A stretch of DNA of 8,653 nt from a virus (taxonomy: Duplodnaviria > Heunggongvirae > Uroviricota > Caudoviricetes), in the IMG/VR virus record IMGVR_UViG_2526164666_000018, positions 1-8,653 of that record. One strand, 5' to 3'. Both the position numbers and the translations under genes were made by a program. The notes beneath the pieces are model-generated. The model saw only the letters and a list, made by a program, of their open reading frames with translations, was not told where the DNA came from and ran no database searches. Below are positions 796 to 7,338 of this stretch, piece after piece (within the stretch, counting starts at the first letter, position 1; each line of letters starts with the position of its first letter).

Positions 796-1002
796 ATGGA
801 AAAAATCACAACAGGTGTGTCATACACCACGTCAGCGGTGGGGACGGGATACTGGTTACTGCAGCTGCTGGACAAAGTCTCTCCGTCCCAGTGGGTGGCA
901 ATAGGTGTGCTGGGGAGTCTGCTGTTTGGCCTGCTGACGTATCTGACAAATCTTTATTTCAAGATTAAAGAAGATAAGCGTAAGGCTGCACGGGGAGAGT
1001 AA
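796..1002 (+). CDS. S: Class II holin (pinholin), phage 21 S / Stx-phage S type
   Basis: 68 aa ([13 protein letters not shown]...[22 protein letters not shown]) with two hydrophobic segments and a charged C-terminus, closely resembling phage 21 / 933W S as I recall it. GGAG at 781-784 precedes the ATG. It is first gene of a lysis cassette. Confidence 0.9.
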
Positions 1003-1877: not shown

Positions 1878-2411
1878 ATGAACGCAAAAATCAAATACGG
1901 CCTGTCGGCTGCCGTTCTGGCGCTGATTGGTGCAGGGGCGTCTGCGCCTGAAATCCTCGACCAGTTTCTGGATGAAAAGGAAGGTAACCACACCACGGCA
2001 TACCGTGATGGTGCGGGTATCTGGACCATCTGCCGTGGAGCCACCCGGGTGGATGGTAAGCCTGTTATTCCTGGCATGAAACTGACGAAGGAAAAATGCG
2101 ACCAGGTTAACGCTATTGAACGTGATAAGGCGCTGGCATGGGTGGAGAAAAACATCCGGGTGCCGCTGACCGAACCCCAGAAAGCGGGGATCGCGTCATT
2201 CTGTCCGTACAACATTGGCCCCGGTAAGTGCTTCCCGTCGACGTTTTATAAACGAATTAATGCAGGCGATCGAAAAGGTGCCTGTGAGGCGATTCGCTGG
2301 TGGATTAAGGACGGTGGCAGAGACTGCCGTATCCGTTCAAATAATTGCTACGGTCAGGTCTCACGGCGTGACCAGGAGAGCGCGCTGGCGTGCTGGGACA
2401 TCGACAGATAG
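1878..2411 (+). CDS. R: SAR (signal-anchor-release) endolysin, T4-lysozyme-like muramidase, Stx-phage R type
   Basis: 177 aa. N-terminal Gly/Ala-rich weakly hydrophobic segment (YGLSAAVLALIGAGASA) typical of SAR domains, followed by an E-x8-D-x5-T catalytic pattern (EGNHTTAYRDGAGIWT). Closely resembles the R endolysin of Stx2 phages as I recall it. Pairs with the pinholin. Confidence 0.9.
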   Translation: MNAKIKYGLSAAVLALIGAGASAPEILDQFLDEKEGNHTTAYRDGAGIWTICRGATRVDGKPVIPGMKLTKEKCDQVNAIERDKALAWVEKNIRVPLTEPQKAGIASFCPYNIGPGKCFPSTFYKRINAGDRKGACEAIRWWIKDGGRDCRIRSNNCYGQVSRRDQESALACWDIDR

Positions 2412-2540: not shown

Positions 2541-2746
2541 CTGACCTTGAGCAAGGCAAGGGAGAAATTATGGGTAGGGAGGTACTTTCCCTGTGAGGAA
2601 GTATAAAAGATTCTTTCTGAGGTTGTCCATTATGAAAGGCATTGAAGTGGAGACGCCAGCCAGTCTGGATTTAACAAGAGCGGCAGCTTTTGCCATTCGT
2701 ATTGTGGCCATTGCTGTTCTGGTCTGGGCAATCCGTTGGTGGTGAT

Positions 2747-3214
2747 ATGAACCGTGTTCTGTGCGTGGTTATCATTGTCCTGCTGGTGGCCTGTGGTGCG
2801 CTTAGTCTGGGGCTGAATCATTACCGTGATCACGCCATCATCTACAAAGAGCAGCGCGATAAAAAAGCCAGTGAGCTGGAGCTGGCGAACGCGACAATTA
2901 CTGATATGCAGATACGCCAGCGTGATGTCGCTGCACTTGATGCCAGATACTCGAGGGAATTAGCCGATGCGAGAGCTGAAAATGAAACTCTGCGTGCTGA
3001 TGTTGCCGCTGGTCGTAAGCGCCTGCGGATCAACGCCACCTGCTCCGGTACCGTGCGTGAAGCCACCGGCACCTCCGGCGTGGATAATGCAACCGGCCCC
3101 CGACTGGCAGACACCGCTGAACGGGATTATTTCATCCTCAGAGAACGGCTGATGGCAATGCAGAAGCAACTGGAAGGAGCACAGGAATATATCCGTACCC
3201 AGTGTATACCGTGA
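2747..3214 (+). CDS. Rz: Rz i-spanin (inner-membrane spanin subunit)
   Basis: Translation from the ATG at 2747 (MNRVLCVVIIVLLVACGALSLGLNHYRDHAIIYKEQRDK...) has an N-terminal TM helix and coiled-coil periplasmic domain and is highly similar to lambda Rz. The track ORF 2690..3214 has an N-terminal extension not matching Rz. Confidence 0.9.
   Translation: MNRVLCVVIIVLLVACGALSLGLNHYRDHAIIYKEQRDKKASELELANATITDMQIRQRDVAALDARYSRELADARAENETLRADVAAGRKRLRINATCSGTVREATGTSGVDNATGPRLADTAERDYFILRERLMAMQKQLEGAQEYIRTQCIP
2967..3152 (+). CDS. Rz1: Rz1 o-spanin lipoprotein, embedded in the +1 frame within Rz
   Basis: 61 aa with a lipobox (LPLVVSAC) and a proline-rich mature part (PPAPVPCVKPPAPPAWIMQPAPDWQTPLNGII), fully embedded in Rz as in lambda. 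An alternative start is the Met at 2982. Confidence 0.85.
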   Translation: MRELKMKLCVLMLPLVVSACGSTPPAPVPCVKPPAPPAWIMQPAPDWQTPLNGIISSSENG

Positions 3215-3679: not shown

Positions 3680-3994
3680 ATGCTACATGATCACGTGGCA
3701 GAATGTCTGGAGAAAAAAGGACTGTACCGGAGAGCAGCTGAACGATGGGCAAAAGTGATGGTACAGCTAAGTGATGACCAGAAAAGAAAAGTGGCGGCAC
3801 AGAAACGAGCAGAGTGTTTGCGTAAGGCGCGCCGGACTCCGGTTTCACCGGTGAACCTGACCGAAATAAAACAAGCGGTCAACAGACTACATTCTGAGTT
3901 GGGAATGGGATTTGAAGAGCGGCGGGTATTCCGACGATATAAAGGGACAGGAGAACAGAATACGTCCGGAAACGCGCGGTCAAAAAAATGCTAA
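3680..3994 (+). CDS. Small basic 104-aa protein, tentatively a PerC-family (Pch-like) transcriptional regulator; moron-type cargo
   Basis: GGAGGT at 3669-3674 lies 5 nt before the ATG. The N-terminal motif AECLEKKGLYRRAAERW resembles what I remember of PerC/Pch regulators from EPEC/EHEC; this assignment is from memory and unverified. The gene is flanked by AT-rich DNA and followed by a terminator. Confidence 0.6.
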   Translation: MLHDHVAECLEKKGLYRRAAERWAKVMVQLSDDQKRKVAAQKRAECLRKARRTPVSPVNLTEIKQAVNRLHSELGMGFEERRVFRRYKGTGEQNTSGNARSKKC

Positions 3995-4075: not shown

Positions 4076-4300
4076 TTAAGTAAACCTGTCTGAACAGGTG
4101 CTCTGGTCGTGTTTGTCTTTGTTGGGTACAAATTGAGAATATTTTTCATTAATTAATCTTCTTCTGCAGGCTTCAATAACCCACGCTGAAAAATTACCTG
4201 AACCTTTCAGGTCAAGAGCGATGTTAATTTGTTCAATTATCTGGTTTGGAAATCGGATGTTGCGGGTTGTTGTTCTGCGGGTTCTGTTCTTTGATGACAT
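4076..4300 (-). CDS. Small 74-aa basic protein with a ribbon-helix-helix-like pattern (possibly YlcI/DUF3950-like); putative DNA-binding regulator
   Basis: Minus-strand ORF MSSKNRTRRTTTRNIRFPNQIIEQINIALDLKGSGNFSAWVIEACRRRL...: a basic N-terminus, a short beta-strand-like segment then helices, as in Arc/CopG RHH proteins. Family assignment is from memory only. The RBS is weak. Confidence 0.5.
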   Translation of the reverse strand: MSSKNRTRRTTTRNIRFPNQIIEQINIALDLKGSGNFSAWVIEACRRRLINEKYSQFVPNKDKHDQSTCSDRFT

Positions 4301-4469
4301 AATGTTGCCCCGTATTCAGTGTTGCTGATTTGTATTATCTGAAGTTGCTTTTACGCTAATTTGATGCAGATCAATTAATACGATACCTGCGTAATAATTG
4401 ATTATTTCTCGTGGTTTGATGGCGTACACACATGTCGTGATAAACCTCATGTAGATGATAATTATTATC

Positions 4470-4690
4470 ATTTTCGTGGGTCCTTTCCGGCGATCCGACA
4501 GGTTACGGGGCGGCGACCTCGCGGGTTTTCGCTATTTATGAAAATTTTCCGGGGAAAATCATGTCGGTACTTCTCGAACATAACTATTTGTTTTTCTAAT
4601 ATCGAATCCGTAAAGGTCCGACATGAAAACGCCTGAAAAAGTCATTTTCGGGCACTTTCATGTCGGACCCTGTATTTGTTGTGAGACTGT
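4470..4690 (+). other. cos: Phage cohesive-end site cos (cosQ-cosN-cosB); the 12-nt cohesive end GGGCGGCGACCT is at 4508-4519
   Basis: tcgtgggtcctttccggcgatccgacaggttacg|GGGCGGCGACCT|cgcgggttttcgctatttatgaaaattttccgg matches the lambda right-end/left-end junction almost base for base (from memory). Downstream are three CATGTCGG-type repeats at about 4556-4571, 4614-4632 (inverted) and 4650-4665, taken as cosB R elements, immediately upstream of Nu1. Confidence 0.85.
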
Positions 4691-4693
4691 TTC

Positions 4694-5213
4694 ATGAAGG
4701 TTAATAAAAAGAAACTTGCCGAAATTTTCAAAGTGGATCCGCGAACGATTGAACGCTGGCAGTCTCAGGGGCTCCCTTGCGTCTCCGGAGGTGGTAAGGG
4801 CGTTGAATCTGTATTTGATACCGCCACGGCAATTCAGTGGTATGCGCAGAGGGAAGCTGATATCGAAAATGAAAAACTCCGTAAAGAGGTTGAGGATTAC
4901 AGGGCTGCCAGCGAGGCAGATCTCCAGCCTGGGACTATTGAGTACGAACGCCATCGACTTACGCGTGCGCAGGCTGACGCCCAGGAGCTGAAGAATGCCA
5001 GAGACTCCGCAGAAGTGGTGGAAACCGCATTCTGTACTTTCGTGCTGTCACGGATCGCAGGTGAAATTGCCAGTATTCTTGACGGGATCCCTCTCTCAGT
5101 ACAGCGGCGTTTTCCGGAACTGGAAAACCGACATGTTGATTTCCTGAAACGGGATATTATCAAAGCCATGAACAAAGCAGCCGCGCTGGATGAACTGATA
5201 CCGGGGTTGCTGA

Positions 5214-5239
<26 letters not shown>
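4694..5239 (+). CDS. nu1: Terminase small subunit (gpNu1-like)
   Basis: 181 aa. From about residue 55 onward (IENEKLR...[59 protein letters not shown]...[12 protein letters not shown]) it is near-identical to lambda Nu1 as I recall it; the N-terminal ~50 aa DNA-binding region differs. It sits immediately downstream of cos and overlaps the start of A. Confidence 0.95.

Positions 5240-7338
<2,099 letters not shown>

Follow-up and report, generated by a model that had tools for sequence, protein, structure and literature searches.

A probable phage 21-type cosB and terminase cassette in the lambda-type packaging module of a lambdoid prophage

In this work, we describe the packaging region of a lambdoid prophage, from E. 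coli lineages of the Shiga-toxin type, in which a lambda-type module very probably holds a cassette of about 350 bp (~4553-4905) from a relative of phage 21. The cassette comprises cosB, in the order R3-I1-R2-R1, and about the first 71 codons of the gene for the small terminase subunit (TerS, or Nu1), and is expected to make the initiation of packaging 21-specific. By their sequences, cosQ, cosN, I2, the remaining part of TerS and the large terminase subunit (TerL) are of lambda type. The cassette is the natural counterpart of the hybrid lambda-21 hy51 and it is an ordinary one, widespread in E. coli prophages and of a kind that has been fully described. The first-pass annotation of this DNA had paired non-lambda cosB repeats with a chimeric Nu1. 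That reading can be sharpened, the non-lambda version being, as far as alignment tells, the phage 21 type.

Our own analysis established the anatomy of the site, its homologies and breakpoints, and the way in which recognition helix and R sites are linked; for which protein binds which site, we rely on published work on lambda and phage 21.

The late region and its cos site

The window, that is, the whole stretch of 8,653 nucleotides that was analysed, was recognized from gene calls and Pfam matches as the late region of a lambdoid prophage (table 1). Rightward it continues in the order cos, small terminase subunit (4694-5239), large subunit, W and the start of the portal gene. The full 8.6 kb match prophages of O103, O145 and other Shiga-toxin-type E. 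coli with identities of up to 99.8%, and the whole window was found at a coverage of at least 80% in 443 of 5426 complete E. coli genomes. The holin and lysozyme genes of the lysis cassette (796-2411) are split by a DUF1327 (YdfR-like) ORF of 183 aa, which is labelled an incomplete pseudogene in the closest genome. Two cargo genes, of the PerC and DUF3950 families, lie between Rz and cos, where lambda has bor and other genes.

Table 1. Features of the window, from left to right; bp numbers are counted from the mature left end
Feature	Position	Strand	Remarks
SASA-family esterase gene			Window holds its end only
P21-type holin	796-1002		Pfam 'Bacteriophage P21 holin S'
Lysozyme	1878-2411		
Rz	2690-3214		
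PerC-family gene, transcriptional activator homologue	3680-3994	+	Pfam E = 3.8e-44
DUF3950 / YlcI-YnfO family gene	4076-4300	-	
cosQ, GGGTCCT, packaging-termination element	4478-4484	+	Identical to lambda and 21; distance to cosN as in lambda and a 21-type prophage
cosN cohesive end, GGGCGGCGACCT	4508-4519	+	Identical to the annotated cos of lambda/DE3 and to bp 1-12 of phage 21 (X02501)
I2 spacer between cosN and cosB, lambda type, bp 18-49	4525-4556	+	~100% identical to lambda up to 4552
R3 of cosB, bp 50-65, core CATGTCGG at 4560-4567	4557-4572	+	By alignment to X02501
I1, IHF-like site AAACAAATAGTTA between R3 and R2	4581-4593	-	One mismatch to WATCAANNNNTTR; consensus match only
R2 of cosB, plus strand GGTCCGACATGAAA, inverted relative to R3 and R1	4615-4628	-	Identical to phage 21 R2
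R1 of cosB, TTTCATGTCGGACC	4656-4669	+	One base off phage 21 R1 (GGACC here, GGGCC in 21)
TerS 5' part, residues 1 to ~71, 21-type winged helix-turn-helix DNA-binding domain	4694-4905	+	
TerS 3' part, residues ~72-181, lambda-type oligomerization and TerL-binding part	4906-5239	+	
Large terminase subunit TerL, lambda A type	5214-7140	+	Gene broken at 6929 by a +1 insertion private to the window

cosQ, whose role lies in packaging termination (PMC4669245, PMC9026076), and cosN had been called lambda-like, and both proved identical to their lambda counterparts, the identity running on to ~4552. Base pairs are numbered here with bp 1 of the mature left end at position 4508. The I2 spacer, the extent of which follows published work (PMC4856287), spans part of the left recombination boundary (4497-4553), and the earliest informative site of 21 type is position 4553.

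Three elements of the CATGTCGG type had been noticed between cosN and Nu1. They were found at 4560-4567 (+), 4618-4625 (-) and 4659-4666 (+), and the window as a whole contains four copies of CATGTCGG against 0.23 expected, a number reached in none of 200 shuffles. The cores of the three start at bp 53 (+), 111 (-) and 152 (+), and the CGTTTCC cores of lambda start at bp 53, 114 and 154 in the same orientations. The repeats are thus not the R elements of lambda, as had been suspected, although they occupy the positions of lambda R3, R2 and R1, with R2 inverted, and match cosB of phage 21 (X02501). The start of the R3 core at bp 53 from cosN is common to the window, lambda, phage 21 and relatives.

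The fourth copy of CATGTCGG (5128-5135, minus strand) is located within the lambda-type part of Nu1, ~620 bp from cosN. We considered it as a remote 'rR2' in the style of N15 and rejected it as such: the octamer also occurs in lambda Nu1 but not in phage 21 gene 1, which is why we regard it as a coincidence of the lambda coding sequence. A CATGTCG motif left of cosQ (4431-4437) was also taken as a chance occurrence, the 21-type locus being without a counterpart.

At the two base pairs of R3 reported as the contacts that discriminate lambda from phage 21, bp 56 and 59, the former being G:C in 21 (PMC4669245), the window has G (4563 and 4566, respectively), like X02501, whereas lambda has T and C. 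R3 differs from that of phage 21 solely at bp 54, which is A in the window and G in 21 (CGTGTCGG).

The putative IHF site I1 covers bp 74-86 and is preceded by an A/T tract; in X02501, 'IHF binding sequence 2' is annotated at 75-85. The T-run within I1 (4586-4590) has five residues in the window and six in all 649 matching genome records. This missing base (4590) reduces the distance between R3 and R2 to 58 bp, compared with 59 bp in phage 21 and in strain 2313 and 60 bp in the isolated phage IdasGreatGrand.

The overall layout is the one known from phage 21, with the order cosN-I2-R3-I1-R2-R1, the R3 core at bp 53, an inverted R2 and a putative IHF site at ~bp 75-85. cosB architecture and spacing are shared with lambda as well, and cosQ, cosN and I2 are identical to those of lambda, in contrast to the R cores. 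The N15/Monarch type also has a lambda-like cosQ and cosN and a Nu1-family TerS (PMC4669245), but N15 has a single R3, no IHF site, and another recognition helix and R sequence, whereas the window has the complex cosB with three R elements.

Recognition helix, R sites and the R2-R1 palindrome

The whole TerS falls in the Phage_Nu1 family (Pfam PF07471), with 302.8 bits against a cut-off of 30 and over profile positions 1-164 of 164. Its fold could be placed by sequence matches in the PDB (6hn7_B, 1j9i_A and 7lwr_A; E = 1e-26 to 8e-42). Over residues 1-54, it is 87% identical (47/54) to phage 21 gp1, and likewise to the 54-residue PDB chain 7lwr_A, compared with 56% to lambda Nu1. Over residues 1-71 the identity is 85% to gp1 and 59% (42/71) to lambda Nu1. 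The phage 21 gene 1 product is identical to the 'P21 prophage-derived' TerS of the CFT073 lineage (UniProt TERS_ECOL6). The recognition helix (residues 17-24) reads RTIERWQS, exactly as in phage 21 gp1 (X02501) and 7lwr_A, and RTIQNWQE in lambda. The wing is SGGGKG in the window and SKGSKG in phage 21, with Lys35 retained. Alignment thus places both the repeats and the N-terminus of Nu1 apart from the standard lambda versions and with phage 21 X02501.

We looked at the association between helix and R sites in 86 loci, made up of IMG/VR contigs and reference loci, many of which are closely related and do not represent 86 independent events. The RTIERWQS helix, present in 28 loci, was always accompanied by three 21-type cores and never by a lambda core. 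In the other 58 loci the helix is RTIQNWQ[E/D], and the cores are of lambda type throughout, two or three in number, with none of 21 type. The same chimera, with a lambda-type C-terminus, was present in 27 of the 28 RTIERWQS loci. Because of the close relationship among the loci, this linkage is to be read as consistency rather than as many independent events.

Another cosB/TerS type, between those of 21 and lambda, was observed in Escherichia phage PhiR5_1 (locus L090, 639-1375). Its helix is RTIDRWQT, its cores are CATGTCAG (R3), GATGTCGT (R2, minus strand) and CATGTCGT (R1), and the C-terminus of its TerS is of neither lambda nor 21 type. PhiR5_1 suggests, at the level of sequence, that the family has more than two specificity alleles.

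The existence of an intermediate type such as that of PhiR5_1 (RTIDRWQT; CATGTCAG, CATGTCGT) bears on the possibility that the cassette has a packaging specificity of a third kind, distinct from both lambda and 21, which would insulate it from phage 21. The SGGGKG wing, seven other substitutions in the DNA-binding domain, which is 87% and not 100% identical to gp1, and the perfect CATGTCGG in R3, where 21 has CGTGTCGG, could all be read in this sense, and the wing type and R3 bp 54 co-occur in the few loci available. Nevertheless, we consider such a specificity improbable, given that the recognition helix, R2 and the R1 core are the same as in 21, with R1 a single flanking base off, that 21 bases stand at the two published discriminating positions, bp 56 and 59, that the wing lysine K35 is kept and that bp 54 lies outside the reported critical contacts. 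Since the wing differs and the cassette DNA is 81-88% identical to that of phage 21, the phage 21-type cassette may have a shifted sub-specificity. It is unlikely that the SGGGKG wing and the three perfect CATGTCGG copies constitute a sub-specificity that partly insulates these STEC prophages against terminases of true 21 type, or that the 55-bp palindrome described below has a function of its own, as a hairpin of DNA or RNA, in packaging initiation or Nu1 expression.

An inverted repeat of 12 bp had been reported in this region. One of its arms is indeed located as reported (TCCGACATGAAA, 4617-4628), but the other (TTTCATGTCGGA) lies at 4656-4667 and not at 4650-4662. The repeat is also larger than had been stated, being perfect over 14 bp (4615-4628 / 4656-4669), and it forms part of an R2-spacer-R1 palindrome with arms of 25 nt (4615-4639 / 4645-4669) that are 88% complementary and 5 nt apart. 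As RNA, this segment (4615-4669) folds with -39.7 kcal/mol (z = -5.6), and a check for intrinsic terminators weakly flagged its inner hairpin (4631-4653) as terminator-like.

The full-length palindrome, spacer included, is kept in lambda and phage 21, the cosB regions of which are only ~55% identical. The spacer arms are alike in sequence across the types, with few double changes for covariation. In phi80 and in locus L086, the R arms are kept, the small central hairpin differs and the spacer palindrome is not kept. The folding energy, the terminator-like inner hairpin and the preservation of an equivalent palindrome in lambda and 21 would fit a main role of the CATGTCGG palindrome as an RNA or DNA hairpin, for example in termination or in translation control upstream of Nu1 on the late transcript, instead of as TerS sites. 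We hold this to be very improbable, as R3 has the same core and lies outside the hairpin, the elements fall on the R sites that experiments have defined in lambda and 21, and the spacer palindrome is not kept in phi80 and L086; moreover, any function as a hairpin would come on top of TerS binding and not replace it.

Breakpoints and the chimeric terminase

In a three-way alignment, the window is ~100% identical to lambda before 4553, 55-60% from there on and 95% again beyond ~4905, and its identity to the 21 type shows the reverse change at both breakpoints. Within 4553-4905, 116 informative sites are 21-like and 20 lambda-like; outside this interval the numbers are 7 and 134, respectively (Fisher p = 7e-47). 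The left junction lies within 4497-4553, in the conserved stretch of cosN and I2, and the right junction within 4888-4909 (codons ~65-72), directly before a conserved segment of 11 residues.

The same pattern holds for the two parts of the TerS gene. Its 5' part (4694-4905) has a DNA identity of 88% to 21 and 61% to lambda, whereas its 3' part (4906-5239) has 95% to lambda and 58% to 21. At the protein level, residues 72-181 are 98% identical (108/110) to lambda Nu1 and only 50% identical to phage 21 gp1, because this part is of lambda type in the window. A divergent N-terminus followed by a near-lambda remainder had been reported before; this was borne out, except that the divergence extends to residue 71 and not to ~50.

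TerL is 98% identical (560/571) to lambda gpA and 68% identical (375/553) to the 21-type gp2. The C-terminal part of TerS binds TerL (PMC9026076), and with both of lambda type in the window, the TerL-binding half of TerS matches its partner. The window is thereby set apart from phage 21, from which it also differs by a cosB that is 81% identical at the DNA level.

Stx1a-converting phages and lambda have flanks ~95% identical to those of the window, but the cos query matched them only over its first 83 bases. Considering that the flanks are common to these phages and the cassette is not, the cassette is allelic within one backbone. Experiments have demonstrated that lambda exchanges DNA with prophages by homologous recombination, the junctions falling at cos/nu1 (PMC3945230). 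The sharp breakpoints, together with a recognition helix equal to that of phage 21 gp1 and the linkage of helix and R cores in the 86 loci, argue for the swap of a specificity module that the first-pass annotation had proposed.

DNA-binding domains and their sites can co-evolve fast, and no sequenced donor is identical to the cassette, which would be compatible with gradual divergence of a fast-evolving N-terminal domain without any recombinational swap. This explanation seems to us highly improbable in view of the fall of lambda identity from ~100% to ~55-60% within a few bases at 4553 and its recovery to 95% after ~4905, with 21 reversed, of the distribution of informative sites given above, and of the fact that synonymous and noncoding sites shift along with coding ones.

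An engineered equivalent of the swapped cassette is lambda-21 hy51 (Feiss laboratory), which likewise combines a 21-specific cosB and a TerS of 21 type at its N-terminus and Nu1 type at its C-terminus with the TerL of lambda. It is a viable, 21-specific helper, and the 5' half of its TerS gene derives from gene 1 and the 3' half from Nu1 (PMC4669245, PMC9026076). Unlike the window, hy51 is laboratory made, with 21 itself as the donor, a half-and-half gene and a left end of ~600 bp; the window is natural, its donor is a relative of 21 and its crossover lies earlier (codons ~65-72).

A natural version was found in an isolated phage, IdasGreatGrand (PP925829), which has the same cassette and chimera (97.9% identity to the cos query and 99% identity in TerS), but differs from the window in its lysis genes and in the region left of cosQ. 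The viability of the chimeric design is indicated by the fact that hy51 works as a 21-specific helper and that IdasGreatGrand carries the natural version.

Although the architecture equals that of hy51, the probability of contamination by a laboratory lambda-21 hybrid, a cloning vector or a helper phage is practically negligible: the cassette is only ~85% identical to phage 21 DNA, the junction lies ~bp 380-400 from cosN in contrast to the left-end segment of ~600 bp in hy51, the flanks contain non-lambda genes (P21-type holin, PerC-family, DUF3950), and the whole 8.6 kb occurs in the prophages of the 443 E. coli genomes mentioned above.

Packaging, distribution and the present copy

Based on the packaging model for lambda and 21 (PMC9026076, PMC4669245, PMC4856287), TerS dimers with the 21-type winged helix-turn-helix would read the CATGTCGG elements, occupying R3 and R2 and, in addition, R1. 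Bending of the DNA by IHF at I1 would put R3 and R2 face to face, and the lambda-type C-terminal half of TerS would anchor the lambda-type TerL on cosN. TerL would then make the staggered nicks at cosN that produce the GGGCGGCGACCT ends and would package rightward. Termination at the next cos would need cosQ, cosN and I2 and would be independent of the type of cosB. By analogy, initiation is expected to be 21-specific, with no cross-use of a lambda-type cosB, and the motor, the docking to the prohead and termination are expected to be lambda-like.

The window would thus provide a natural example of a principle that laboratory lambda-21 hybrids were the first to reveal: packaging specificity in lambda-like phages resides in a small exchangeable cassette, made up of cosB and the DNA-binding domain of TerS, which can be combined with a TerL-binding domain of foreign origin. 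Where Shiga-toxin-type E. coli harbour many lambdoid prophages side by side, the set of prophage genomes, including defective ones, that a given terminase can mobilize should be determined by the cosB allele. Stx1a phages have the same backbone with the lambda-type allele. The distinction is of use in annotation and in the prediction of cross-packaging. In the literature that we searched, we found no paper discussing a natural lambda/21 TerS chimera and none dealing with cosB, Shiga toxin and terminase together.

The cassette (4540-4910) was found at a coverage of at least 80% in 1174 of the 5426 complete E. coli genomes. The matching records include 547 at identities of at least 95%, which represent this allele including its lambda-type junction, and 808 at 80-90%, which represent the true 21 type. 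The exact TerS protein was present on at least 999 contigs, where it is named merely 'terminase small subunit', and among 50,697 phage records it was found only in IdasGreatGrand.

The copy in the window has single-base changes of its own. An extra A at 6929 causes a frameshift in TerL, such that the ORF starting at 5214 stops early, at 6971, and the lambda-like C-terminus goes on in another frame (6925-7140); a missing A at 7265 causes a frameshift in W. The insertion at 6929 was found in none of 3168 matching E. coli genome records, the deletion at 7265 in none of 670 and the short T-run at 4590 in none of 649, and relatives of the window have intact genes at the 6929 and 7265 sites. The three changes represent either sequencing errors or recent decay. 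In view of the frameshifts in TerL and W and of the short T-run in I1, this copy may be nonfunctional, or its sequence may contain errors. A further difference from strain 2313 was observed at position 265, where the window has one unit fewer of a 6-bp tandem repeat (GCGCTG/CGCTGA); this change is in frame and affects the SASA-family esterase gene at its C-terminal end.
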